Source: Bacteroidota bacterium
GTDB lineage: Bacteria; Bacteroidota; Bacteroidia; Chitinophagales; JADJOU01
Reading direction: 5' to 3'
Length of the DNA: 64,000 nucleotides
NCBI GenBank assembly: GCA_016713645.1
Contig: JADJOU010000008.1
Location: 43,472-107,471, forward strand
Part shown: in pieces, positions 3,614 to 63,657 of the stretch
How positions within the stretch are numbered: position 1 is the first letter of the stretch
Layout of the letters: each line of letters opens with the position of its first letter
The notes under the pieces: generated by a model
Told to the model about the DNA's origin: nothing
Database searches by the model: none
Seen by the model: the letters and a program-made list of their open reading frames with translations, nothing else
Translations under genes and position numbers: made by a program

Positions 3614-5263
3614 CTATATCGTCAAATTGTTCTTTTTAGCCGTTTCAATGGCGATTTCATATCCAGCGTCTGCGTGTCGAATAACTCCCATCGCAGGGTC
3701 GTTGTGCAATACCCGTTTGAGTCGCTCTGCTGCATCCACCGTGCCATCTGCCACGATAACCATACCCGCATGGAGCGAATAACCCATGCCAACTCCTCCA
3801 CCGTGATGGAAAGAAACCCAACTAGCGCCGCCTGCAGTATTGATTAAAGCATTGAGTATTGGCCAATCAGCCACAGCATCAGAGCCATCCATCATCGCCT
3901 CTGTCTCTCGATTCGGCGAGGCCACAGATCCAGTATCTAAATGATCTCTTCCTATGACAATCGGCGCTTTCACTTTACCCTCTGCAACCAATTCATTAAA
4001 GGCAAGAGCAGCCCTTTCTCGTTCACCCATTTTCAACCAACATATTCTGGCAGGCAAGCCTTGAAAAGCGATTTTTTCTTTAGCTAGAGTCAACCAGCGA
4101 AGCAAGCCTTTATTTTCTGGGAATAATTCTTTCAATTTCGCATCACAAACAGCAATATCATTTTCATCACCGCTCAGAGCGACAAAACGAAAAGGACCAG
4201 ACCCTTCGCAGAACAGCGGTCTTATATATTCTGGAACAAACCCCGGGAAGTCGAATGCATTCTCTACCCCATGAGCCAGCGCCTGACCTCGGATATTATT
4301 GCCATAATCAAAAGTGATGGCTCCTCTTTTTTGCAATTCAATCATTTGGCGCACTTGTTTGCACATCGTCTCAATCGAACGTTTCCTGTATTCATCCGGA
4401 TTGGCTTCGCGCAGCACATTTGCCTCGACGACCGACATTTTCTCCGGGAAATACCCGATTAATTCATCGTGAGCAGATGTTTGGTCTGTCAAAGTATCCG
4501 GGGTGATATTGCGCTCAATCAAGCGCCCCAATAAATCCACCGCATTGCATACGACACCGATAGAGATGGCCTTTCCCTCTTTAGCATATTGCACAGCTTT
4601 ATCTATGGCGATATCGATATCTTCATACATCTCATCGATATACCGAGTTTCAATTCTCTTTTTAATCCTCCATGCCTCTACATCAGCAGCTAGACAAACT
4701 CCTTCGTTCATGGTAATGGCAAGGGGTTGAGCACCGCCCATGCCGCCGAGTCCCGCAGTAACATTCAGCTTGCCCTTTAAACTTCCATTAAAATGCTTAT
4801 TAGCTAGCGATAAATAGGTCTCATAAGTGCCTTGCACGATTCCCTGCGAACCGATATAAATCCAGGAGCCAGCGGTCATTTGACCATACATCATCAAACC
4901 TTTTTGCTCTAGTTCTGAGAAATGTTCCCAATTGGCCCATTTTCCCACCAAATTTGAATTGGCGATAATCACCCTCGGCGCATGCTTATGCGAGCGCAAG
5001 ATACCGACGGGTTTTCCAGACTGCACCATTAAGGTTTGGTCCTCTTCTAAATTCTGAAGACAAGAGATAATTTTATGATAGGATTCCCAATTTCTGGCAG
5101 CTTTTCCTCTACCTCCATATACAATAAGCTCGTCGGGGCGCTCAGCAACATCTGGGTCGAGATTATTCATCAACATCCGCATTGCTGCTTCTTGCACCCA
5201 TCCCTTGCATGAAATTTTAGCACCGCGCGGTGCCCTTATATTTTTTACAATATTTGATTCCAT
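3614..5263 (-). CDS. hutU: Urocanate hydratase
   Basis: 549-aa ORF with full-length resemblance to HutU ([24 protein letters not shown]). Confidence 0.95.
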
Positions 5264-5714: not shown

Positions 5715-6078
5715 CTCTTTCTCATTTGACCTTATATCCATCGTTTTTAAATCAAAACACATCCTCTTTAGAGCGCATCAAAGTCTATTTAAAGCAAATC
5801 ACTGATTCTATAAACCTTATCTAGGACTCTTTGACACAAATCCACATATCTTTGGGATTCAACACGCTATCGCTAAAACAAGTCACATTCTCTCCATGAT
5901 TCGACAAGAGTTCTTTGCGGCAGATGATTGGCTCTTTATGACAAGTTGTAAATTCTTTGAAACACAAATTGAACTCTTTGAAAGGTGCTTGCCTATTTCA
6001 ATGACAAAACACCTACTCTTTGGAGCGCAACATACACTGTCTTAGACAGAATTCCTATTCTCTCAAACAAAACACTAT
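5715..6078. repeat. Degenerate 21-bp periodic tandem array (about 15-17 units) with a conserved YTCTTTR core
   Basis: Cores start at 5764, 5827, 5848, 5911, 5932, 5953, 5974 and 6016. All spacings are exact multiples of 21. A second conserved ACA block sits at unit positions 10-12. Confidence 0.8.
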
Positions 6079-7458: not shown

Positions 7459-7691
7459 TCTTTGGATTAGATTGGGTTTTTAATAAATGAAAGTTAGATG
7501 ATGACTTGGCATGTATTTTTAAATCCCACCACACATTTCTATACTAGATATTCCACCATCATCCATACAGGATTTGGGATTGATTTGCAAGACATAAAAA
7601 TGTATGATAAGCCACAAGTGATAGTCGGTAAAAGCTATATCATGTTGCTTTCCTCTTTTCCCCTATCTTCATCCCTCAATTTTTGTAATAA

Positions 7692-10555
7692 ATGAAAATA
7701 AATTTCTTTCTTGTTTTCTTATTAAGCGTTTGGTTTATAAATCAAGCAAGAGGTCAACAACCCGCCCATTTCATCCTCGGTGAAAATCAATTTAAGGGCG
7801 TGCAGATCTATGATATGATTCAAGACAATGAGGATTATTTCTACTTCGCGACCAACGAGGGAATCATCCACTACGACTTTATAAGCTTTACCAAACTAGA
7901 GACCAAAGAGGCGCGCAGCAATGCATTTTTCAACTTAGTAAAAAACAAAAAGGGCACCATATTCTTCAACAATCTAAACAACCAAATTTTTAAAATTGAG
8001 AACAAGACCTGTGAACTCGTCTTTACTTTGCCAGAGCGTTTCAGTTCGAATATAATCAACCTCACTTGCAATAATCTCGGTCAATTGATCATCGCCTGCA
8101 AAGGAATCCTCCTTATCTCAGAAGAAGGGAAGTTATTGAATGAATTAGAATCGCCCTATGTTTTCAACTCCAGCTATCAACTCAGTGACGGGAGTTGGAT
8201 GTTTCCGGTTGCGAATGATACGAGTCTATTATTGTATGACAATAAAATCTTCCATCGTGCCGAGCTGCTGCTAAATGGCGCAAAATCAAGCCGAGCCTTC
8301 GGTGTGCTGAACTTCTTTCGTTTCCTAGACAGCCTTTATGCTGTAGATTTATCCAACAATAAATTTTATGCCTTCGATGAACTTAGGTTGTCACTGCGCG
8401 AAATCAATGTCGGCAATTTTTTAAATTCCAGTACCAATGCGCGGGTCTATATCACCGGCGATCAAATCTGGTCGGCATCGTCCATCTCGGGCATCAATTT
8501 TAGCAATCATACCCTGCCACAAGAATTCTCAGTCTTATTTAAAGACTATTTTATCTCCGACGTCTATCGCGACCGCGAAGGGAATATCCTCATGGGCACT
8601 TTCGACAAAGGTGTTATTGTAATTCCCGACTTAAGTGTGCCTGATGTCATTGACCCTTTTCACAGCGACCCGATGATTAGCCTATTTGCCGCAGGTAAAA
8701 ATGAAATCTATATGGGTTCAAATAGTGGCTTTTTTAAAATGTATCAAAACTATCAAATTCAAACAATCAGCAGCACCCATAAAAAGCCGATTGAGGGAGT
8801 CTATGGTGACGTAGAGAGTGATTTTATCATTTATGATGATGAAAAAATAAAGTGCTATAATCGCAAGACCAAAGAGATATACAGCTTCTCCAACGCTTCG
8901 CTGAAAGACGTTTGTTTTATCAATCATGAGGCGATGTATATTGGAACCAATATTGGGGTATACAAGGCGAAACTGGGAACTCATGCGCGTTTTTCCATAG
9001 AACACATCCCTGATTTTAAGACAAGGGTTTATTCCCTCGCTTATGATAAAACAAATGAAATTTTATACATCTCCAGTGCGAGTGGATTACTAAAATTCCA
9101 TCAAAACAAAGTCGAAAAAATTCTTTATCAAAACCATGATATCTATTCAGAAAAAATTTGTGTTGATGGGGAAACCCTCTATGTTTTATCCCGTCAACAC
9201 GGCATATTGACGGTGAATAGCCAAGTTCAAATTTCTCCTTTTGTATTTAAAACACTTAGTCGTGAAGAACAAATCAAGCATATCCAATTTTACAATCACT
9301 CTATCATTACTAGCACCAATACGGGTTTGTATCAATTTGACTTGAAAGGGAATATCGTACGACAATTTCATACGGCTTTTGGATTTGCGACAAAGAAAAT
9401 CTATGAATACAGTATAGCTGAAAACACGCTGTGGGTGAGCCATTCAGGTGGTGTGCAAGAGATTGGGCTCAATACCTACATTCAAAAAAGGAAGCAATTG
9501 CCATTAGATTGAAACAAGTCTTTGTAAATGATTCAAATGTAACAATAGCATCTGTCAATCACTTTAATTCTACACAGCGCAAGATTGCCTTTGTGGTCGT
9601 CTCTCCTAGTTTGCGGAATTTGGAAAATATAAAATACCACTATATCCTTCAAGGCTATGATAATCATTGGTATTCACAGAGCAGCAATTCCATCCAATTC
9701 AACGCCTTATCGCCTGGCAGCTATACCCTCTTTGTAAAAGCTGAGTCAATGGGAAATTTTAGCAATGTAATTCAATACTCTTTTAGAATAATCAAGCCTT
9801 TTTATCTGCAGATTTGGTTTCTAATCAGTGCATTGTTTATTTTTTTAGCAATCGTATATTTTGTGTATAGATGGCAGGTGGAAAAGCAGAAATTGAAATT
9901 GAAATTGTTGAACGAATTGAACGTATCCAAACTCACGGCGATTCAATCTCAGATGAATCCCCACTTTATATTTAACTCCCTCAATTCTATTCAAGATTTT
10001 GTCTTACAACAAGACGCGATAAAAGCCTATGATGCCATTGGTAAATTTGCCACCCTCATTCGAAAAATTATGTTGCATTCGGAAAAGGAATTTATTGATA
10101 TTGAAGAAGAACTCGCCATCTTGAATGTCTATTTGGAATTGGAAATGATGCGCATCAAAAAGGATTTTCACTATTCCATAAATAGCCACGACTTGGCCGA
10201 TATTGAAATTCCGCCCATGCTTATCCAACCCTTCATTGAGAACAGCATTAAACATGGCTTGTTGCATAAACAAGGCGAAAAAATATTGACTGTAGATATG
10301 ACTATTTCCGGGGATGTTTTTATCTGTGAAATTCAAGACAATGGCATCGGTCGGCGGCAGTCAGGCATTATTAAATCCAGACAGAACAAAGAGCATACAT
10401 CTTTTGCAGGAAGTGCGTTAGAAAAGAGAATGCAAATACTTAAGAAACATTTTGGTGGGAATTTTAGTGTAGAAATCTTAGATTTACACGATAAGGAGGG
10501 AAATGCAACAGGCACCAAAGTCATTTTGAAAGCCCCCTTTAAATATATATATTAG
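7692..10555 (+). pseudogene. Sensor histidine kinase with periplasmic propeller repeats, a Y_Y_Y domain, one TM helix, and LytS-type His_kinase + HATPase domains; frameshifted
   Basis: ORFs 7692-9512 and 9431-10555 join as ...LNTYIQKKEAIAIRLK... if the A6 run at 9484-9489 is read as A7. Supporting motifs: YHYILQGYDNHWY (Y_Y_Y), QMNPHFIFNSLNSIQ (His_kinase), and a C-terminal ATPase. Confidence 0.85.
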
Positions 10556-10558
10556 CAA

Positions 10559-11305
10559 ATGGAAAAGATTAAAGCACTTATTGTAGATGATGAGGAAAGT
10601 GCGAGAAACATTTTATTCAAACTTTTGCAGACTTATCGAAATGATATTGACATTATTGGTCAGTGCGATAATGTGGAACAAGCCGTTTTATTTATCAAAA
10701 ACAACAAGCCCGATCTTGTGTTCTTAGATATTGAAATGCCCAACTACTCTGGCTTGGAGCTTATTCAATTCTTCGATGAAATACCCTTCGACATTATTTT
10801 CATCACGGCTTATCATCAATTCGCCATCAAAGCATTTGAAATTTCTGCATTCGATTATTTGTTAAAGCCCATTGAAATAGCGCGGCTCGACAGCGCCATA
10901 AAAAAATACATCGTCAAAACGCATCAGCAATTAGAAGCGATCAACTACAAAATCTTAAAAGAGAATCTAAGCCAAAACTGTATTTCTAAATTGATTGTAA
11001 GTCAGCAGGGCGGGCAGAAAGCCATATTATTGTCGGACATCATCGCCCTACAAGCAAACGAGGCATATACGACGATCTATGATGCAAATGGGCAGCAATA
11101 CACCATGAGTAAAAATTTAAAGTATTTTGAACAGCAATTCTCCGACAACAAAGATTTCCTTCGTGTACACAAATCTTGGTTAGTCAATGGACAGCACATT
11201 CGGAAATATTCCAGTACTGATTTTTCCATTTATTTGAGTCTAAATATAGAAGCGAAGCTTTCGAAATACAAAAAAGCCGAGTTTGACGCTTGGTATAAAA
11301 GCTAA
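10559..11305 (+). CDS. LytTR-family response regulator (REC + LytTR DNA-binding domain)
   Basis: 248-aa ORF with a receiver domain (ALIVDDE...DLVFLDIEMP) and a C-terminal LytTR pattern (FLRVHKSWLVN). It starts 3 nt after the kinase gene. Confidence 0.9.
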   Translation: MEKIKALIVDDEESARNILFKLLQTYRNDIDIIGQCDNVEQAVLFIKNNKPDLVFLDIEMPNYSGLELIQFFDEIPFDIIFITAYHQFAIKAFEISAFDYLLKPIEIARLDSAIKKYIVKTHQQLEAINYKILKENLSQNCISKLIVSQQGGQKAILLSDIIALQANEAYTTIYDANGQQYTMSKNLKYFEQQFSDNKDFLRVHKSWLVNGQHIRKYSSTDFSIYLSLNIEAKLSKYKKAEFDAWYKS

Positions 11306-11323
11306 TCCCGCTTTCGTTTTTCG

Positions 11324-11356
11324 TCCATTCCTCAAAAAATCAATCCATTCCTCAAA
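11324..11356 (+). promoter_or_regulatory. Putative LytTR operator: two perfect 13-bp direct repeats TCCATTCCTCAAA
   Basis: Copies at 11324-11336 and 11344-11356 (20-bp period). They lie 18 nt after the regulator stop codon and 7 nt upstream of the -33 element. Confidence 0.6.
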
Positions 11357-11363
11357 CATCTGT

Positions 11364-11393
11364 TTTGAGCCCTTTAATAGCACAATAAATTTG
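11364..11393 (+). promoter_or_regulatory. Putative Bacteroidota-type promoter (TTTG at 11364-11367, TAAATTTG at 11386-11393)
   Basis: TTTG, an 18-nt spacer, then TAnnTTTG. The -7 box ends 26 nt upstream of the ATG at 11420. Confidence 0.5.
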
Positions 11394-11419
11394 CGCTATA
11401 AACAATTTACATTATCATC

Positions 11420-12751
11420 ATGAAACAGATTAAAAAATTAAAACGCATCAGTGTTATTGCGCTAATCAGCTTATTTACAACCAATCTATTTGCGCAAAAA
11501 ATTCAATTCGAAACTATTGAAATTAATTATGGAAACGTCGTAGGTGGAGTAAAAAAGAAAAATGAATTCTTAGTATTCACAGGGCCTACACCATTAACAA
11601 TAAATAGCGGAATCTCTCTTAACAAAGACAATGGTGACTATAAAGGCAAATTAACTTTAATTGGGAATGACAGAAAGGGCAAAAGACTTAGTATTATGAC
11701 GGATATAACTTATAGTGCAACTAGATATAGAAACACGAGCAAGGTAGATATCAAGCCCGAGCAAGACAACGAGATTTATATCAACGAAATAATGATTTCT
11801 GTAACGGACTCAAAAGGCAATACGACATCTGCGACTGAGCCCATCTTTAATGCACGGACCAATACGAGTTTTGCTGTTTTGCTGAATGGCATTTCAAGTG
11901 ATAAATTTTGCGATGAACAAAAACTGAATGCCGTATTTATGAATCAATCCGTTGGTTTCGGAATATTCGCTGTTGTATTGGGATTAAACAATACAAAGAC
12001 GGGTCCCTCGCCAATCGAAAAAGCGATGACTGCAGGAAGAGGAAATGGAATCGGGAGATATGTTTGGACAACTAGTCATGATCAGAGAACAACGAGAATT
12101 GTTGCGCCTACAACAGACAATGCAGGAAACTGGACATTTGAAGACAAAATGCCCATAAAAGATGAAAAAAACCCACCAGTTCTTGAGAGTTTTGAAATGA
12201 TTTATATAACTGCTTGCAATGATACTTACACGTATAAAAGTGTTTTCATGCAAAAGCTAGCTGATATTAAACCATGGGATTATAAAGTAAGAATGGACAA
12301 TGTAATAGCTACAGATAATCCCGTATTCCAAGGTGGAGGTAATGTTATGACGAATGTCTTGGGTTTAACCTTCCCTAGTTCTTCTGTTACAATAACAGGA
12401 GGAAGTATAGCAATCGCTGACCATTCAAAATTCAGTATTGGCTTGAGCAATACCAATGTTGGAAATGGCGGTATCAACTACAAAAAAATCAATGATGTCT
12501 TTATAAACATTCAATTCAAATCAGAAAGCGATAGAGTATTCTATCACTGGGGAAGCGTCGTGTCTACCTCAAACCCAAGAATTGCAATTAACACCGACTC
12601 GCTAAAAATCAAAGATTACACCATTGTAAATGCTGAAATTCGCGTTGTCAACGACAAAAAGATACCCTCGTATATGAGAGCAATGGAAAGTTTGCAACTT
12701 CATTGGATGGAAAACAACCTTTTTATTGTTGGAGAAATCAGAGAAAATTAA
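11420..12751 (+). CDS. Secreted hypothetical protein (signal peptide; no family recognised)
   Basis: 443-aa ORF. The N-terminus (MKQIKKLKRISVIALISLFTTNLFAQ) is a typical Bacteroidota signal peptide. Confidence 0.7.
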   Translation: MKQIKKLKRISVIALISLFTTNLFAQKIQFETIEINYGNVVGGVKKKNEFLVFTGPTPLTINSGISLNKDNGDYKGKLTLIGNDRKGKRLSIMTDITYSATRYRNTSKVDIKPEQDNEIYINEIMISVTDSKGNTTSATEPIFNARTNTSFAVLLNGISSDKFCDEQKLNAVFMNQSVGFGIFAVVLGLNNTKTGPSPIEKAMTAGRGNGIGRYVWTTSHDQRTTRIVAPTTDNAGNWTFEDKMPIKDEKNPPVLESFEMIYITACNDTYTYKSVFMQKLADIKPWDYKVRMDNVIATDNPVFQGGGNVMTNVLGLTFPSSSVTITGGSIAIADHSKFSIGLSNTNVGNGGINYKKINDVFINIQFKSESDRVFYHWGSVVSTSNPRIAINTDSLKIKDYTIVNAEIRVVNDKKIPSYMRAMESLQLHWMENNLFIVGEIREN

Positions 12752-12803
12752 ATTGATCAAAGAGAGCTATGCCTTTGGAAAATCGAGCTTAATAGTGACA
12801 GAT

Positions 12804-13160
12804 TTGAAAACATTATTGGCATTGACCTTCTTCTTTTCTTTGAAAAAAGGAAGTAGCATTCCAGCATCGATGGTCGCTCAAGTAGAGATTAATACTTGCA
12901 AAACTGTTCCCGAATTTATAGCAGTAAAGCTAAAATATGATCCTATTTCGGGTTTATGGACAGGTGGTCAATCTATCTTACAAACAGCAGAATGCCCCGT
13001 GACAGTAAAAGGATTTAAAATCAATATCGTCAACACTTGTGGCATTACTTATTCTGCAAAGAATGGCTATTTTGACGAAACAAAAAACACCTGGATTTGT
13101 GAAGATGAATGCTTAAAAGTAAACACAGATACTTTTTGCGGGAGTACAGATCATTTCTAA
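12804..13160 (+). CDS. Small secreted six-cysteine protein (hypothetical)
   Basis: The ORF track gives 12726-13160. An in-frame TTG at 12804 yields MKTLLALTFFFSL... (a signal peptide) and a mature part of about 95 aa with 6 Cys. The start codon is uncertain. Confidence 0.5.
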   Translation: MKTLLALTFFFSLKKGSSIPASMVAQVEINTCKTVPEFIAVKLKYDPISGLWTGGQSILQTAECPVTVKGFKINIVNTCGITYSAKNGYFDETKNTWICEDECLKVNTDTFCGSTDHF

Positions 13161-29603: not shown

Positions 29604-30238
29604 TGTGGATTTGCTTTTATTTCTATGTTCTCTTGTGAATAAGTATATGGCAATCGCGTTGCTATGCTGCGCGCCAAGGTTATTTCATCGGTGTATTCCA
29701 ATTCAGATCCAATGGCTATTCCCCTCGAAATGGAAGAAATTTTACTCCCGTTCCCTCAATTTTTTAATCAAATAATAAATCGTCGTATCTCCCTCTATAG
29801 TTGGATTGAGCGCCATAATGATTTCTTCCACTTCACCACTTTCGACGCGTTGCAATAGTTTTGTATGTTCAGCTTTTCTGGTCCAATTCCTTCAACTGGT
29901 GAAATGACGCCACCTAAGACATGATAGACCCCTTGATACTGGCCCGTATTTTCTATTGCCAAAACTTCGCGAACCGTTTCTACAACGCAGATCATCTTCT
30001 TCTTTCTTGCATTGCTCTCACATATATGGCATATTTCGCCGTCTGCATAATTGCAGCAGATGCGGCAAGTCTTTACTTCTTTCTTCATCACTGATATCGC
30101 AGAACAAAACTTTTCTACCTCTTCTGTATTTGCTTTTAGCAAATGTAAAACCAAGCGCAGGGCCGTTTTTTTTCCTATTCCAGGAAGTCTTGACACTTCT
30201 GAAACCGCTAATTCAATATGTTTAGATGAGTAAATCAT
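29600..30238 (-). pseudogene. recR: Recombination protein RecR with two compensating frameshifts
   Basis: The N-terminal HhH, the Cys4 zinc finger (CRICCN...CHIC) and the start of the Toprim domain are in ORF 29795-30238. The middle part ([38 protein letters not shown]) is in another frame. The tail ([28 protein letters not shown]) returns to the first frame and stops at 29600-29602. Confidence 0.85.
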
Positions 30239-37731: not shown

Positions 37732-40700
37732 CTATTCCTGAATTAGCAATTTCCCCTTTTCAATATTTCCACGGAAAGAAATTTCGTATAGATAAAATCC
37801 AGGAACGAGGTGTGATATTGGGAGAGTATTTATTTTCTGATTCAAATAATAGGTCAGTATTTTTTTACCGTCCAAAGAGAGCAAAACTATGGATGCATGG
37901 AAATCTTCATCACTCAGAGAAATGGTTAACGATTCCCGCGCAGGGTTGGGATAAATGCGAACTTGCTGGCTGAGGTTGTTTTGATTTAATCCAACAGAAT
38001 TAATAGGCACACAAGCAGAAGTGTCGGAACAATTCGTTTGAGTAACAACTACTTTAAAAGAACCATTAAAAGATGGAGTAAATGATTCAGCATTGGCTTC
38101 AGCTATTATAGTATTGGTCGCACAATTGATCCATTGATAAGTAGCACCAGCTTGTGCAGCAGTGATGGTATTTCCGGTCGTATTGGTCAGTTTACTCGGC
38201 AGTGGCGTGACCGTCAAGTTTAAAGTGACCACAGAATCGCATCCATTGAAAGAGGTAAATGTATCTTTGAAAGCGCCGGAAGTGTTTCTGGCTATGCCGT
38301 TCCAGAGAAAGGATTGGTTGGCGCAGATGGTTTGGTTGATGCTGCTTGAACTTGTTGGTTTGACGGTAAGATTTAAACTGACCACAGAATCACAACCACT
38401 AAACGAAGTAAATGTATCTTTAAAAGCGCCAGAAGTGTTTCTGGCTATGCCGTTCCAAAGGAAGGATTGGTTGGCGCAGATGGTTTGATTGAAATTGAAG
38501 TTAAAAGAGAAGCTACGAATAACAATTTTGTTTTCGGAGGGTTTACTTACAATGAGATAATTAAAGGCGGAATCAAAAGCGCTAAAAAGAGTGATGCTTG
38601 GATTGGCAGCACTTCCCAACACACTATTGCAATTATTAATCGTGCCAATGATTTCAGCATTATCAGCAGCAATTGTTATAGCACCAGCGTTTATAAAAGC
38701 CCCATTATCCCAAAACGAACTTCCTACAACATAATTTCCATTAGTTAAAGCGGTAACACCATTATTTCCAATTTGGTCATTTGCCTGAGAACCTACGAGC
38801 GAATTGCTCGCGCTAACAGCGCCGACTCTTCCTGTTGTTCCATTGCCCCAAGTCACCGCCCCAGCATTAGCAATCACCCCATTGTCCCAAGAGTTAGAAG
38901 TGACCACATAATTTCCATTGGATAAAGCGGTAATTCCGTTACTTCCAATTAGGTCACTAGCCGAAGATCCGACAAGCGAATTGCTCGCGCTAACAATGCC
39001 GACGCTTCCTGTTGTTCCATTGCCCCAAGTTACCGCCCCAGCATTAGCAATCACCCCATTGTCCCAATTTGGACTTCCTACAACATAATTCCCATTTGTT
39101 AAAGCGGTAATTCCGCCATTTCCAGTATTGTCATTAGCCGAAGAACCGACGAGCGAATTGCTCGCGCTAATAGCGCCAACAATTCCTGTTGTTCCGTTGC
39201 CCCAAGTCACCGCCCCAGCATCAGCAATCGCCCCATTGTCCCATGACGGGCTTCTTACTACATAATTTCCATTGGATAAAGCGGCAATTACATAATTTCC
39301 AATTTGGTCATTAGCCGATGTTCCGACGAGCGAATTGCTTGCGCTAACGGTACCAACTCTTCCAGTTGATCCATCGCACCACGTCGCTGCTCCAGCATTG
39401 CCAATTGCACCATTGTCCCAATTCAAACTTCTTACAACATAATTTCCATTGGATAAAGCGGCAATTCCGTTACTTCCAATTGCATCATTAGCCGAAGATC
39501 CGACGAGCGAATTGCTCGCGCTAACGGGACCAACTCTTCCTGTTGTTCCATTGCCCCAAGTCACCGCCCCAGCATCAGCAATCGCCCCATTGTCCCAGAA
39601 CGGGCGTGTTACAACATAATTCCCATTTGTTAAAGCGGTAATTGCACCACCTCCAAATGCATCATTAGCTGAAGATCCGACGAGCGAATTGCTCGCGCTA
39701 ACAGCGCCGACAATTCCTATTGTTCCATTGCCCCAAGTCACCGCCCCAGCATCAACAATCGCCCCATTGTCCCAAGAGTTAGAAGTGACCACATAGTTTC
39801 CATTGGATAAAGCGGTAATTCCGTTATTTCCAATTAGGTCACTAGCCGCAGATCCGATGAGCGAATTGCTTGCGCTCACAGTGCCGACAATTCCAGTTGT
39901 TCCATTACCCCAAGTCACCGCCCCAGCTTGAGCAATCGCCCCATTGTCCCAATTCCGGCTACTTACGACATAATTCCCATTTGTTAAAGCGGTAATTCCA
40001 CTACCTCCAATTGCATCATTAGCCGAAGAACCGACGAGCGAATTGCTTGCGTTAACGGGACCAACTCTTCCAGTTGTTCCGTTGCACCAAGTCACTGCCC
40101 CGGCATTAGCAATCGCCCCATTGTCCCAATTTGGACATCCTATAACATAATTCCCATTGGATAAAACAGTAATTCCATTAAATCCAATTTGGTCATTAGT
40201 CACAGATCCGACGAGTGAATTGCTCGCGCTAACAACGCCGACTTTTCCTGTTGTTCCATCACACCAAGTCACTGCCCCAGCATCTGCAATGGCACCATTG
40301 TCCCAATCTAGACTCCTTACAACATAATTCGCATTTGATAAAACAGTAATAGTACTACTACCAATTTGGTCATTAGCCGAAGAACCTATGAGCGAATTGC
40401 TCGCGCTAACAACGCCGACGCTTCCTGTTGTTCCATTGCCCCACGTCACCGCCCCAGCATTAGCAATCGCCCCATTGTCCCAATTTGGACTTCCTATAAC
40501 ATAATTCCCATTGGATAAAACAGTAATTCCATTAAATCCAATTTGGTCATTAGTCACAGATCCGACGAGTGAATTGCTCGCGCTAACAACGCCGACAACT
40601 CCTGTTGTTCCATTGCCCCAAGTCACCGCCCCAGCATTAGCAATTGCCCCATTGTCCCAATTCACACTTCTTACAACATAATTTCCATTGGTTAAGATGC

Positions 40701-40986
40701 TAATTCCGCCGGAGCCAACCTGGTCGTTCGCTGTTGAGCCAGTTAATGTGCTAATCAGCGCATGAGTTGCCCCATTATACAAATAAACGGCACCGACATC
40801 AGTCAAGGAATTGTCAAAGAGCGGGTCGGTTACTACGTAATTCCCATTCGGCAATACTGTGACCGTTTTACCAAATTGGCCGCTGCCAGAAGGGCCATTG
40901 ATTATTTTATTTTGAGCCGATAAAGAGCAAAAATTAAATGGAATAAAGAAGACAATAAGTAAAAATGTAAAAACAAAGTGGTTCAT
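37732..40986 (-). CDS. Large T9SS-secreted repeat protein (about thirteen 59-aa tandem repeats, two 51-aa Cys-containing repeats, type A C-terminal sorting domain)
   Basis: Signal peptide ...SLSAQ. Repeat unit: NGNYVVxSxxWDNGAIxNAGAVTWGNGTTGxVGxVSASNSLVGSxANDQIGxxGITAL. C-terminus: VRIYPNPARESLTISL...GFYLYEI. Confidence 0.85.
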   Translation of the reverse strand: MNHFVFTFLLIVFFIPFNFCSLSAQNKIINGPSGSGQFGKTVTVLPNGNYVVTDPLFDNSLTDVGAVYLYNGATHALISTLTGSTANDQVGSGGISILTNGNYVVRSVNWDNGAIANAGAVTWGNGTTGVVGVVSASNSLVGSVTNDQIGFNGITVLSNGNYVIGSPNWDNGAIANAGAVTWGNGTTGSVGVVSASNSLIGSSANDQIGSSTITVLSNANYVVRSLDWDNGAIADAGAVTWCDGTTGKVGVVSASNSLVGSVTNDQIGFNGITVLSNGNYVIGCPNWDNGAIANAGAVTWCNGTTGRVGPVNASNSLVGSSANDAIGGSGITALTNGNYVVSSRNWDNGAIAQAGAVTWGNGTTGIVGTVSASNSLIGSAASDLIGNNGITALSNGNYVVTSNSWDNGAIVDAGAVTWGNGTIGIVGAVSASNSLVGSSANDAFGGGAITALTNGNYVVTRPFWDNGAIADAGAVTWGNGTTGRVGPVSASNSLVGSSANDAIGSNGIAALSNGNYVVRSLNWDNGAIGNAGAATWCDGSTGRVGTVSASNSLVGTSANDQIGNYVIAALSNGNYVVRSPSWDNGAIADAGAVTWGNGTTGIVGAISASNSLVGSSANDNTGNGGITALTNGNYVVGSPNWDNGVIANAGAVTWGNGTTGSVGIVSASNSLVGSSASDLIGSNGITALSNGNYVVTSNSWDNGVIANAGAVTWGNGTTGRVGAVSASNSLVGSQANDQIGNNGVTALTNGNYVVGSSFWDNGAFINAGAITIAADNAEIIGTINNCNSVLGSAANPSITLFSAFDSAFNYLIVSKPSENKIVIRSFSFNFNFNQTICANQSFLWNGIARNTSGAFKDTFTSFSGCDSVVSLNLTVKPTSSSSINQTICANQSFLWNGIARNTSGAFKDTFTSFNGCDSVVTLNLTVTPLPSKLTNTTGNTITAAQAGATYQWINCATNTIIAEANAESFTPSFNGSFKVVVTQTNCSDTSACVPINSVGLNQNNLSQQVRIYPNPARESLTISLSDEDFHASIVLLSLDGKKILTYYLNQKINTLPISHLVPGFYLYEISFRGNIEKGKLLIQE
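38190..38490. repeat. 153-bp tandem duplication (two 51-aa NQTICANQSFLWNGIARNTSGAFKDTFTSF.GCDSVV.LNLTV units)
   Basis: GGATTGGTTGGCGCAGATGGTTTG occurs at 38311 and 38464. The antisense ORF 38162-38488 also shows the duplication. Confidence 0.85.
38570..40850. repeat. 177-bp coding tandem repeat array (about 13 units) inside the large T9SS protein gene
   Basis: Blocks such as GCGAATTGCTCGCGCTAAC recur every 177 bp (for example at 38799 and 38976). Several units are near-identical at the DNA level. Confidence 0.85.
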
Positions 40987-42738: not shown

Positions 42739-43350
42739 CTATAAATCTATCGATAAGTTTTGTGCAAATCTAGCAATCGCTTGGCTATTTAAATCTTCGA
42801 ATTGAGGAATGGAAAATAGCAAGGGCAATTGCGTGTGTTCGAGGATGAATGATTCAGAGGCACTATTTTTTTCACCGCTGAAAACGATGCCACGGATGTC
42901 TATATTTCTGCTTTGCAAAGCGAGGAAGGAAAGCAAGCTATGGTTGATACTTCCTAAATAATTATTGGAAACTAAAATGACTGGTAAAGCGAGATGCTCT
43001 ATCAAGTCGAGGTTGAGGAGGTTTTTTGCGAGCGGACTCATCACACCACCAGCGGTTTCTACTAGGAGATTGTTATGGGTTTGAGGCAATACGATTTTTT
43101 CTTTTTCAATGGTGATTCCCTCTTGTTCTGCGGCATAGTGCGGCGAAGCGGGAATCTGCAAGCGATAGGATTCGGGATGAATCACACAACGCGGATTTGT
43201 CACCAATTTTTTAATCGCGATGCTATCGCTATTGTCTAAATCACCTGCTTGGACAGGTTTGAAGTAGTCATAGCCCAGGGCTTGACAAATCACAGCCGAG
43301 CAGATGGTCTTGCCGACACCGGTATGAATTCCAGCAATTATAACACTCAT
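42739..43350 (-). CDS. bioD: Dethiobiotin synthase
   Basis: 203-aa ORF with the P-loop GIHTGVGKT and ETAGG motifs. Confidence 0.9.
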   Translation of the reverse strand: MSVIIAGIHTGVGKTICSAVICQALGYDYFKPVQAGDLDNSDSIAIKKLVTNPRCVIHPESYRLQIPASPHYAAEQEGITIEKEKIVLPQTHNNLLVETAGGVMSPLAKNLLNLDLIEHLALPVILVSNNYLGSINHSLLSFLALQSRNIDIRGIVFSGEKNSASESFILEHTQLPLLFSIPQFEDLNSQAIARFAQNLSIDL

Positions 43351-45569: not shown

Positions 45570-46815
45570 TTATGGGAGATGTTTTTTAAATATGGAACTG
45601 GCGATATGTCCGCCAAAACCAAAGGTATTGTTCATGGCGTAGACGATCTTTTTTTGCACAGCATGACCGAGCGTGAAGTCAAAAGAGTGAGCAAATTCAT
45701 GTTCAATGGTGGATGTATTGATGGTCGGCGGAATGATATCCTCGCGAATAGATTGAATGCATGCAATGGCTTCAATGGCGCCCGCAGCGCCGATTAGGTG
45801 ACCTGTCATGGATTTTGTCGCGCTGATATTGAGCTTGCGAGAATTACCAAAAATAGTTTTCATGGCAAATAGTTCGCTTAAATCTCCCGCTTGGGTGGAA
45901 GTTGCATGGGCATTTACATAGTCGATTTCAGAAGCTTGAATGCCGGCCTCTTCAAGTGCAAGCGACATTCCCTCAGCAGCGCCTTCTCCTTTAGGATGAG
46001 TCCCCGTGAGGTGATAAGCGTCAGCATAAAGGCCGCCACCGACGATTTCTGCGAGAATAGGTGCACCGCGCTTGATGGCGTGTTCGAGGGATTCAAACAC
46101 GAGGGCACCTGCGCCTTCACCCAAGACAAATCCATTTCTATGGATATCAAATGGTTTTGAAGCGGTTGTATGGGTTTCGTTAGAAGTAGAAATAGCGCGT
46201 GCGGCGTTGAATCCGCCGATGGAACTCTCGGTGATGGATGCTTCCAGAACCGCCTGTGATGATCATATCTGCCTTTCCCCAGCGGATATAATTCAAGGCG
46301 TTAATTATGGCGGTATTGCTTGAAGCACAAGCAGAAGCTGTGGTAAAATTGATGCCGTGCAAATCGTATTTTATGGAGATGGCGCCAGCGGCAATATTAT
46401 TGATTCGCTTGGGAATAAAGTAGGGGTTGAATCGCGGAATTCCCTCATTGAGTTTATAGTCACCATATTCCTGTTCCGTGGTGGAAATCCCGCCATTGCT
46501 GGTTCCCCAGATGACGCCGATGCGCTTTTTGTTTAGAGCATCAAATTGAATTTGTGCTTGTCGAATGGCTTCATCAGCAGCGACAAGGGCGTACTGTGTA
46601 TATAAATCGTACTTTTTTAAATTCGCCGCATCAATGGCAATCAATGGATTGAAGTCTTTCACTTCGCAAGCGAATTGGGTTTTAAATCGACTTGCGTTAA
46701 ATTTGGTGATAGGCCCTGAACCGCTTTTACCGCGCAAGAGCGCCTCCCAATAATCGCGAAGATTATTGCCGATGGGCGTGATGGCTCCGAGGCCTGTTAT
46801 GACGACTCTTTTCAT
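45570..46815 (-). pseudogene. fabF: Beta-ketoacyl-ACP synthase II, frameshifted
   Basis: ORF 46180-46815 holds the active-site Cys (TTASACASS). ORF 45570-46124 holds the His pair (NAHATST, GHLIGAAG). The frames rejoin as ...ITGGSEASITESSIGGFNAARA... if one G is removed near 46243-46246. Confidence 0.9.
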
Positions 46816-46847: not shown

Positions 46848-46930
46848 GGGTATAATTGTTTTAAAGAGGGGCGATTTAAAGAGATTTGTTTTTAATTACA
46901 AACATTCTTGCTAAGTGTCAGTTGGTGATG

Positions 46931-47020
46931 TTTTAAACGCAAAGAAGCGATTTTAAACGCAAAAAAGGAGTTTTGTCAAAGATTGTTCTCAGAGCTGAAG
47001 ATAATTTAAACGCAAAGAAC
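46931..47020. repeat. TTTTAAACGCAAAGAA direct repeats (two tandem 20-bp units, a degenerate third unit, and one dispersed copy)
   Basis: Copies at 46931-46947, 46951-46967 and 47004-47020, in the divergent region between fabF and the DUF2132/MbnPH operon. Confidence 0.7.
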
Positions 47021-47072: not shown

Positions 47073-47315
47073 ATGGAAACGCAAAAAAACAATCCACTTC
47101 ATGGCATTACGCTAGAGCAGATGTTGATTTATCTCACAGAAAATCACAGTTGGGAATTTCTAGCGTCGGAGATCAATATCAATTGCTTTAAGAGTGACCC
47201 GAGTATCAAATCCAGTTTGACATTTTTGAGAAAAACGCCATGGGCGAGAACGCGCGTAGAAAATCTCTATTTGTATTTGAAGAAGAAAGAGCAAAAGAAA
47301 AGCGATACTAAATGA
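47073..47315 (+). CDS. DUF2132 (VF530-like) small protein
   Basis: 80-aa ORF. The pattern [13 protein letters not shown]...[35 protein letters not shown] is characteristic of DUF2132. Confidence 0.8.
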
Positions 47316-61948: not shown

Positions 61949-63523
61949 ATGTCAGCAGTAAAACCAGATGAAATTTCAGCAATCTTGAGAGATCAAATCG
62001 CTCAAGCGTCAACACCCACTCAATTAGAGGAGACAGGAACTGTTCTTCAAGTTGGAGATGGTATTGCGCGTATTTATGGGCTCAACAACGTGAAAGCGGG
62101 AGAGCTTGTTCAATTTGAAAATGGAACACAAGCGATTGCATTGAATCTTGAAGAAGATAATGTAGGAGTTGTATTGATGGGCGCTACCGAGGGAATTAAG
62201 GAAGGCGATAAAGCATTCCGAACTAAGGTAATCGCTTCAATCAAAGTTGGTGAGGGAATGGTTGGCCGTGTAATTAATACATTGGGATTGCCAATCGATG
62301 GAAAAGGACCTATTACAGGAGATGTATATGAAATGCCATTGGAGAGAAAAGCGCCAGGGGTTATCTATCGTCAACCAGTAAATGAGCCTTTGCAAACAGG
62401 TATCAAAGCGATTGATGCGATGATTCCAATTGGAAGAGGACAGAGAGAGTTGATCATCGGAGATAGACAAGTTGGTAAAACAACCGTTGCAATCGATACG
62501 ATTATCAATCAAAAAGAGTTCTTCGAAAAAGGAGAACCAGTATTTTGTATCTATGTTGCTTGCGGACAAAAATCTTCAACGGTTGCGAATATCGTTAGAA
62601 CATTGGAAGATGCAGGTGCGATGAAATATACAGTTGTTGTTGCAGCGAGTTCTGCTGACCCTGCTCCATTGCAATTCTACGCGCCATTTGCGGGTTGTGC
62701 TGTTGGAGAATTCTTCAGAGATACAGGAAGACCAGCTTTGATCGTTTATGATGATTTGTCAAAACAAGCGGTTGCCTATAGAGAGGTGTCATTGTTGTTG
62801 AGAAGACCTCCAGGAAGAGAGGCTTATCCAGGTGACGTATTCTATTTGCACAGTAGATTGTTGGAGAGAGCGGCTAAAGTAAATGCTAACGACAATATCG
62901 CTCAAGCGATGAACGATTTACCAGATTCATTGAAGGGCATGATTAAAGGTGGCGGTTCATTGACTGCCTTGCCAATCATCGAAACACAAGCGGGTGACGT
63001 ATCAGCATATATTCCTACGAACGTAATTTCAATTACAGACGGACAGATATTCTTGGAGTCTAACTTGTTCAACTCGGGTGTGCGTCCAGCGATCAACGTG
63101 GGTATTTCGGTATCGCGTGTGGGAGGAAATGCACAGATCAAAGCGATGAAGAAAGTGGCTGGAACATTGAAATTGGACCAAGCGCAATACAGAGAGCTAG
63201 AGGCATTCTCTAAGTTCGGTTCTGATTTGGATGCTGCTACAAAAGCAGTTTTGGATAAAGGAGCGAGAAACGTGGAAATCTTAAAGCAAAACTTGGGTTC
63301 ACCATTGACAGTTGAAAAGCAAATTGCAATTCTTTACTTAGGTGCAAACAATCTATTGAAAGAAGTTCCAGTTACTAAGATTAGAGCTTTCCAAGATGAT
63401 TTCTTATCGACTTTGGAAAATTCACATGCAGAATTGTTGAGTTCAATCAGCAAAAAAGCAATTGATGAAGTAGCGCCGGCGATAGTAGAGGTAGCGAATA
63501 AAGTAATGCAAGGGTATAAATAA
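61949..63523 (+). CDS. atpA: F0F1 ATP synthase subunit alpha
   Basis: 524-aa ORF with Walker A (GDRQVGKT) and full-length similarity. Confidence 0.97.
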
Positions 63524-63657
63524 TTTTGAATTTTGAATTCTGAATTTTGAATTACAAATTTGGAATTGTCAATTCTTAATTTTGGAATTCTTAATTTTGA
63601 ATTTTGAATTGCATTTTTGGAATTCGGAGTTTTGAATTGAAAGGCAGGGTTTGAAAG
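63524..63657. repeat. Degenerate 7-bp tandem array (TTTTGAA, about 18-19 units)
   Basis: It reads ttttgaa ttttgaa ttctgaa ttttgaa ttacaaa tttggaa ttgtcaa ttcttaa ... and starts immediately after the atpA stop codon. Confidence 0.8.

Follow-up and report, generated by a model that had tools for sequence, protein, structure and literature searches.

The window, that is, the whole 64-kb stretch of Bacteroidota DNA analyzed here, contains a sensor histidine kinase gene (7692–10555), a response regulator gene (10559–11305), and a gene for a secreted protein (11420–13160), all on the forward strand. The kinase combines a periplasmic sensor part, composed of a Reg_prop beta-propeller and a Y_Y_Y domain, with a core of the LytS/YehU type, for which the Pfam matches PF06580 His_kinase (E=4.8e-21) and HATPase_c both fall in the ORF at 9431–10555. 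The same Reg_prop and Y_Y_Y sensor part is present in the kinases of four related loci (L003, L008, L015, and L016). The response regulator, of 248 aa, consists of a receiver domain (PF00072, E=7.9e-22) and a LytTR domain (PF04397, E=1.4e-15), in agreement with the initial annotation of this DNA, which had named the gene a LytTR regulator. Its homologues found in the same gene order are 48–99% identical to it, and a 95%-identical regulator originates from a Chitinophagales MAG. In all, homologous regulators number more than 4,600. An exact-protein look-up of the window regulator returned no record, and a PDB sequence search with this protein matched receiver domains only. The neighboring genes, located on the opposite strand, encode an alcohol dehydrogenase and a twin-domain ABC ATPase.

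The target gene downstream of the regulator encodes an approximately 580-aa secreted protein, predicted to be all-beta, with a signal peptide but no Pfam domain and no PDB sequence match. The protein is identical to IPK03_07715 and belongs to a rare family, represented by 17 clusters among 5.8 billion proteins. The AlphaFold2 model was of low confidence (mean pLDDT 62.5, pTM 0.31), and a Foldseek search with it yielded only generic Ig/FN3/macroglobulin strings with TM < 0.2.

Both the kinase and the target genes are broken in frame in this assembly. The kinase gene is split into two overlapping ORFs (7692–9512 and 9431–10555), while its relatives encode a single protein of 943–990 aa; tblastn confirmed that both ORFs are colinear with single genes in L008 and L003. 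The target gene is split by two 1-nt deletions into ORFs of 443 aa (11420–12751) and 144 aa (12726–13160), and its relatives carry an intact gene of 583 aa. The breaks map to 9431–9512 in the kinase (one break) and 12640–12751 in the target (two breaks), as 1-nt deletions that lie in short A runs where they could be placed. Specifically, the kinase frame is lost where the first ORF ends, in a stretch with an A6 run; one target break lies in an A run within GGAAAACA, where relatives read Lys-Thr-Thr, and another occurs just after NDKK. The simplest reading is that these are likely homopolymer assembly errors in a long-read MAG. Genuine pseudogenization is possible, in which case this organism may have lost a working system.

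The intergenic region between the regulator and the target gene carries two exact copies of TCCATTCCTCAAA, at 11324–11336 and 11344–11356, separated by a 7-nt spacer (AAATCAA) and thus repeated with a 20-bp period. The pair begins 18 nt after the regulator stop codon (TAA, 11303–11305). It ends 7 nt before TTTG (11364–11367), a candidate −33 element, and 29 nt before TAAATTTG (11386–11393), which matches the sigma-A −7 box TAnnTTTG. The repeats, the distances from the stop codon to the pair and from the pair to TTTG, and the two promoter elements had been described in the initial annotation and were recovered exactly. The sigma-A −7 box spans positions −12 to −5 in Flavobacterium (PMC9723704), which places the predicted transcription start site (TSS) of the target gene near 11398. 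Relative to this site, TTTG lies at −34 to −31, and the distal and proximal half-sites lie at about −74 to −62 and −54 to −42, respectively. Each half-site scored 19.7 bits against a position weight matrix (PWM) that was built from the other loci, leaving the window out, and together they form the single strong PWM pair in the 64-kb window.

Taken by itself, the repeat is significant but does not set this position apart. For exact 13-mer direct repeats lying 13–40 bp apart, 100 second-order Markov simulations of the window give an expected number of 0.07, whereas five such loci were observed. The 13-mer is not dispersed: allowing up to two mismatches, TCCATTCCTCAAA has five matches in the window, against 3.8 expected. 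Closely spaced exact repeats also occur in a 257-bp intergenic region between the divergent ORFs 46180–46815 (−) and 47073–47315 (+), in which three TTTAAACGCAAAGAA-like copies lie at 46925–47015; two of them are exact 13-mers with a 20-bp period (46931 and 46951), and another regulator may have its operator here. Units resembling TTTTGAATT form an AT-rich array at 63527–63640, right after the ORF 61949–63523, with exact 13–14-mers spaced 14–15 bp apart. Finally, the exact 13-mer TACATAATTTCCA occurs twice, 30 bp apart, at 39259–39301 within the minus-strand ORF 37732–40986. This ORF encodes a 1084-aa DUF5650-repeat protein with a Por_Secre_tail, and the duplication probably reflects the repeats of the protein.

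Conservation of the pair was assessed in related loci. Using the target protein family alone, we recovered eight loci (L001, L002, L003, L005, L006, L007, L008, and L010), and an alignment-based metagenome search contributed only two loci. The order kinase, LytTR regulator, and target is kept wherever the available upstream DNA suffices. The relatives carry TCCATTCCTnAAA-like repeats upstream of the target gene, in pairs and once as a triplet, with a period of 20–21 bp. For example, the 20-bp period is maintained in L001 (TCCATTCCTCAAA and TCCATTCCTAAAA), L002 (TCCATTCCTAAAG and TCCGTTCCTAAAA), L005 (TCTATTCCTAAAG and TCCATTCCTAAAA), L008 (two copies of TCCATTCCTAAAA), and L010 (TCTATTAATAAAG and TCCATTCCTAAAA), and three copies are found in L007. 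Within 150 nt upstream of the target gene, each of these six loci has at least one copy with up to three mismatches to the window 13-mer, and most have two or three. L003, whose regulator is the most distant in this gene order (48% identity), has only one copy within this threshold. It carries a diverged variant, TCCATTCATGAAT and GCTGTTTATGAAC, with a 21-bp period, and the two copies share the same two departures from the consensus. Judged from these sequences, the variant motif looks like operator–regulator co-variation.

To quantify this pattern, nine non-redundant target promoters were aligned without gaps. The two repeats contain 1.17 and 1.38 bits of information per position, compared with 0.52 bits in the spacer, 0.21 bits in the 28 nt that follow, and 0.29 bits in the 5′ flank. 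The distance from the end of the proximal repeat to the TAnnTTTG-like box is 28–29 nt in the promoters compared, with L012, in which a poor box follows after 30 nt, as an outlier, and the sequence in between is unrelated from locus to locus. The LytTR operator proposed in the initial annotation is strongly supported by the related loci: the repeat sequence, its period, and its distance from the −7 box are conserved, whereas the surrounding DNA is not.

The motif is also associated with the regulator gene itself. A second pair lies upstream of this gene in five relatives (L007, L010, L011, L015, and L016), and a weak one in L003. These pairs occur where intergenic DNA separates the kinase gene from the regulator gene, and they show the same 28–29-nt spacing to a −7 box. 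Two of these loci, L015 and L016, were found by regulator homology alone (63% and 51% identity, respectively), and in both, PWM pairs precede the regulator gene and the downstream gene and occur nowhere else. L016 is Paracrocinitomix mangrovi (CP091819), in which the gene downstream of the regulator is unrelated to the target family; its promoter nevertheless carries TCCATTCCTGAAA-N7-TCTATTCCTGAAA, followed after 29 nt by TATTCTTG. In L011, a 640-bp insertion parts the regulator from the operator, which remains with the target promoter. The inserted DNA carries, at about 790–1290, a DUF559 endonuclease-like gene flanked by inverted repeats such as CCCCTTTTAAAGGGGG. Across these loci, the motif goes with the regulator and not with the target gene. 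Two operator-bearing loci have no adjacent regulator: an orphan target (L013) and a contig edge with an unrelated lipoprotein gene (L012).

To describe how specific the motif is, we scanned both strands of the window and the related loci, 181 kb in total, with the PWM. The scan returned 21 pairs, all but one weak pair being at these promoter positions, and a control scan of the reversed sequences returned none. A weak pair at 29952 (12.1 + 2.4 bits) was disregarded, and no second operator pair was found by the PWM in the 64-kb window. At a larger scale, the degenerate pair pattern TCYATTNNTMAA-N8-TCCRTTCCTMAAA has four matches in 185,579 species genomes, three of which belong to this system (L011, L013, and L014). 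The fourth, L012, precedes an unrelated lipoprotein-like ORF at a contig edge, with a similar spacing to its poor box, and could be either a regulon member or a chance match. Since the strict pattern misses variants such as that of P. mangrovi, the true distribution is wider. The concern, raised in the initial annotation, that the 13-mer might be a frequent dispersed repeat is dispelled by these four genomic matches and the single pair in the window.

Two further sites in the window resemble the motif. A single strong half-site, TCCATTCCTCAAT, lies on the minus strand at 42801–42813. It falls within a gene (AAA_26) that resembles dethiobiotin synthase, and 28 nt separate it from a TAGATTTG box that precedes an aminotransferase class-III gene. 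As no second site pairs with it convincingly, we judged it to be probably a chance occurrence and not a regulon member. The initial annotation had also noted a weak echo of the repeats in front of the kinase gene. The strings are present as written (TTCCTC at 7650–7655 and ATCCCTCAA at 7671–7679), but the PWM gives them no score and they have no counterpart upstream of the L008 kinase, and we did not retain the echo. Its position relative to the start codon had already been called unconvincing in that annotation; it ends 12 nt before the kinase ATG (7692), leaving no room for a promoter.

The promoters themselves have several features worth detailing. A generic sigma-70 promoter scan of 11306–11419 gave no match; such a scan is uninformative here, because Bacteroidota promoters use TTTG/TAnnTTTG. 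The −33 position is without conservation in the other loci, and a poorly conserved −33 element is typical of activator-dependent promoters. In 11 of 20 related promoters, counting those of target and regulator genes, exactly 4 nt separate the box from the ATG (loci L003, L005, L007, L010, L011, L013, L015, and L016), which predicts leaderless mRNAs. Leaderless mRNAs make up only 5.5% of the mRNAs in Flavobacterium psychrophilum (PMC9723704). In the window's own promoter, 26 nt lie between the box and the ATG. In 3 of 18 promoters (L005, 79–86; L008, ~4943–4950; and L016, ~5972–5979), the 29 nt that separate the box from the proximal repeat contain an inverted third core, GGAATGGA with at most one mismatch, which is absent from the window. 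Shuffled sequences give 0.08 such promoters, and none of 5,000 shuffles reached three. This inverted core may be an additional regulator site over the −33 region.

The DNA directly downstream of the operator is subject to a different kind of variation. A 565-bp stretch (11368–11932), which comprises the core promoter 3′ of the −33 element and the first ~170 codons of the target gene, shares no DNA similarity with relatives, although these are 81–94% identical on both sides of it. The blastn breakpoints (11367/11368 and 11932/11933) are identical against four contigs (L006, L017, L018, and L019). A dissimilar stretch this sharp, with the same breakpoints in four contigs, indicates that the N-terminal domain exists as at least two alleles that are swapped as a cassette.

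The two TCCATTCCTCAAA repeats are thus very probably the operator of the LytTR regulator encoded at 10559–11305, which would activate the secreted-protein gene. We favor this reading because the same pair, at the same distance from the promoter, recurs in about 20 related promoters. According to the proposed mechanism, the propeller/Y_Y_Y sensor kinase (7692–10555) would phosphorylate the regulator, presumably in response to a signal, and two regulator molecules would each occupy one of the direct repeats, both on one face of the helix, with centers near −68 and −48. Once bound, the regulator would bring sigma-A RNA polymerase to the promoter, whose −7 box (TAAATTTG, 11386–11393) is a good one, and this recruitment would activate the downstream secreted-protein gene (11420–13160). 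In relatives whose kinase and regulator genes are spaced apart, the second operator and promoter would drive the regulator gene, resulting in positive autoregulation.

Several other explanations were weighed against this model. We consider it unlikely that the repeats form a genuine operator at which the regulator represses or modulates transcription, or to which a different transcription factor binds. Repression or looping would fit the inverted GGAATGGA core that lies over the −33 region in 3 of 18 promoters. However, the sites are upstream of the −33 position and do not cover the −7 box or the TSS, and the −33 element is as poorly conserved as in activator-dependent promoters. A different factor could account for the two operator-bearing loci that lack an adjacent regulator (L012 and L013), but the motif precedes the regulator gene itself and is kept with the regulator even when the downstream gene is unrelated, which points to this regulator. 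Moreover, the paired direct-repeat geometry is a hallmark of LytTR regulators (PMC4847170).

An element acting at the RNA level, such as a terminator or attenuator hairpin for the kinase–regulator transcript, is very improbable. CUCAAAC (11351–11357) can pair with GUUUUGAG (11362–11369), the predicted RNA fold of 11306–11419 has a z-score of −2.48 with a small hairpin at 11351–11369, and the close relative L001 has a similar pairing (CTAAAA/TTTTAG). Yet the stem is short and AU-rich, with no T run behind it, composition would lead one to expect that the AAA tail of the repeat can pair with the TTTG of the −33 element, and the pairing is absent in six loci with conserved repeats (L002, L007, L008, L011, L015, and L016). 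No meaningful Rfam match was obtained, and a terminator scan between the regulator and the target gene (11305–11420) found none, so that some target expression could come from read-through. We find it scarcely credible that the repeat is a product of chance or slippage, a copy of a dispersed repeat, or the end of a mobile element, with no regulatory role. The four other exact, closely spaced 13-mer direct repeats in the window would be in line with chance, but the pair is conserved in loci whose regulators are only 48–78% identical and whose flanks have diverged. Slippage would have to contend with the 7 nt that follow each copy, which are unlike (AAATCAA and CATCTGT) and argue against a fresh 20-bp tandem duplication, and a dispersed repeat or mobile-element end would not be expected to be as rare as the genome and window scans found it.

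Beyond the operator itself, a broader interpretation can be put forward, although we regard it as doubtful. The repeat pair might mark a Bacteroidota-wide module, extending from Chitinophagales-like MAGs to the flavobacterium P. mangrovi, in which a LytS-type kinase with a propeller sensor and its LytTR regulator would act through a rigid template (two TCCATTCCTnAAA sites, a 28–29-nt gap, a −7 box, and often exactly 4 nt to the ATG, predicting a leaderless mRNA) to control a rare, signal-induced secreted protein with a swapped promoter/N-terminal cassette. The exchange of the cassette between near-identical strains suggests that such a signal-induced product is under diversifying selection, for example in competition or in interactions with phages or predators.

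LytTR regulators are abundant in Bacteroidota. Our literature search found no characterized operator for any LytTR regulator of this phylum, and the arrangement described here is, as far as that search shows, the first concrete, albeit predicted, operator and promoter template for a Bacteroidota LytTR system. The template is testable: two TCCATTCCTnAAA sites with a 20-bp period, followed after 28–29 nt by TAnnTTTG. Its conservation extends to regulators of only 51% identity, and the cultured P. mangrovi carries it, so that the regulon can be predicted and wet-lab tests can be undertaken directly. The general view of how LytTR regulators work is unchanged. The site is of the expected kind and would not surprise a specialist.

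Published LytTR binding sites comprise two repeats of 9–11 nt with spacers of 11–13 nt and follow no universal consensus (PMC4847170). The exact 13-mers with a 20-bp period correspond to a 9-nt core and an 11-nt spacer, within the published ranges for repeat and spacer. The sites of AgrA follow the consensus [TA][AC][CA]GTTN[AG][TG], are 12–13 bp apart, and lie upstream of the −35 element (PMC5600425). The core TCCATTCCT agrees with this AgrA-type consensus at 7 of 9 positions and the L002 variant TCCGTTCCT at 8 of 9. As in the P2/P3 promoters of Staphylococcus aureus AgrA, and in those of ComE, PlnC/D, and VirR, two imperfect direct repeats are located just upstream of the −35 region, and the proximal and distal sites are unequal in quality. 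Autoregulatory copies (PMC5600425) have their putative counterpart here in the pairs upstream of the regulator gene in five relatives. In contrast to the AgrA-type sites, the period is 20 bp instead of 21–22 bp and the consensus is matched at only seven positions, and the phylum and promoter type differ. An Agr/Com/Pln-type cassette was not recognized either, as the ORFs and Pfam matches at the locus revealed no HPK10-type kinase, pheromone precursor, or exporter.

The sensor invites another comparison. In Bacteroides, hybrid two-component systems for glycan sensing unite Reg_prop and Y_Y_Y domains, a HisKA kinase, and an AraC-type output in a single polypeptide and control polysaccharide utilization loci. 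The sensor families are the same here, whereas the kinase is of the LytS type, the LytTR regulator is a separate protein, and no polysaccharide utilization genes are adjacent.

The closest parallels are the YpdA/YpdB and YehU/YehT systems of Escherichia coli, which likewise pair a PF06580 and HATPase_c kinase with a receiver–LytTR regulator. The yhjX promoter contains a direct repeat of GGCATTTCAT to which YpdB binds (PMC4847170), so that in both YpdA/YpdB and the present locus the operator, here a predicted one, has two direct repeats and precedes a single main target promoter. The YpdB core GCATTTCAT (PMC4847170) is also similar to CCATTCCT in the window and to CCATTCAT in L003. Unlike YpdA/YpdB, the locus described here has a Bacteroidota TAnnTTTG promoter and has as its target a secreted beta-rich protein instead of a transporter. 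Its kinase senses through a periplasmic Reg_prop/Y_Y_Y part, which replaces the multi-pass LytS-type membrane sensor domain, and the locus is therefore a variant architecture of the LytS/YehU/YpdA-type system.
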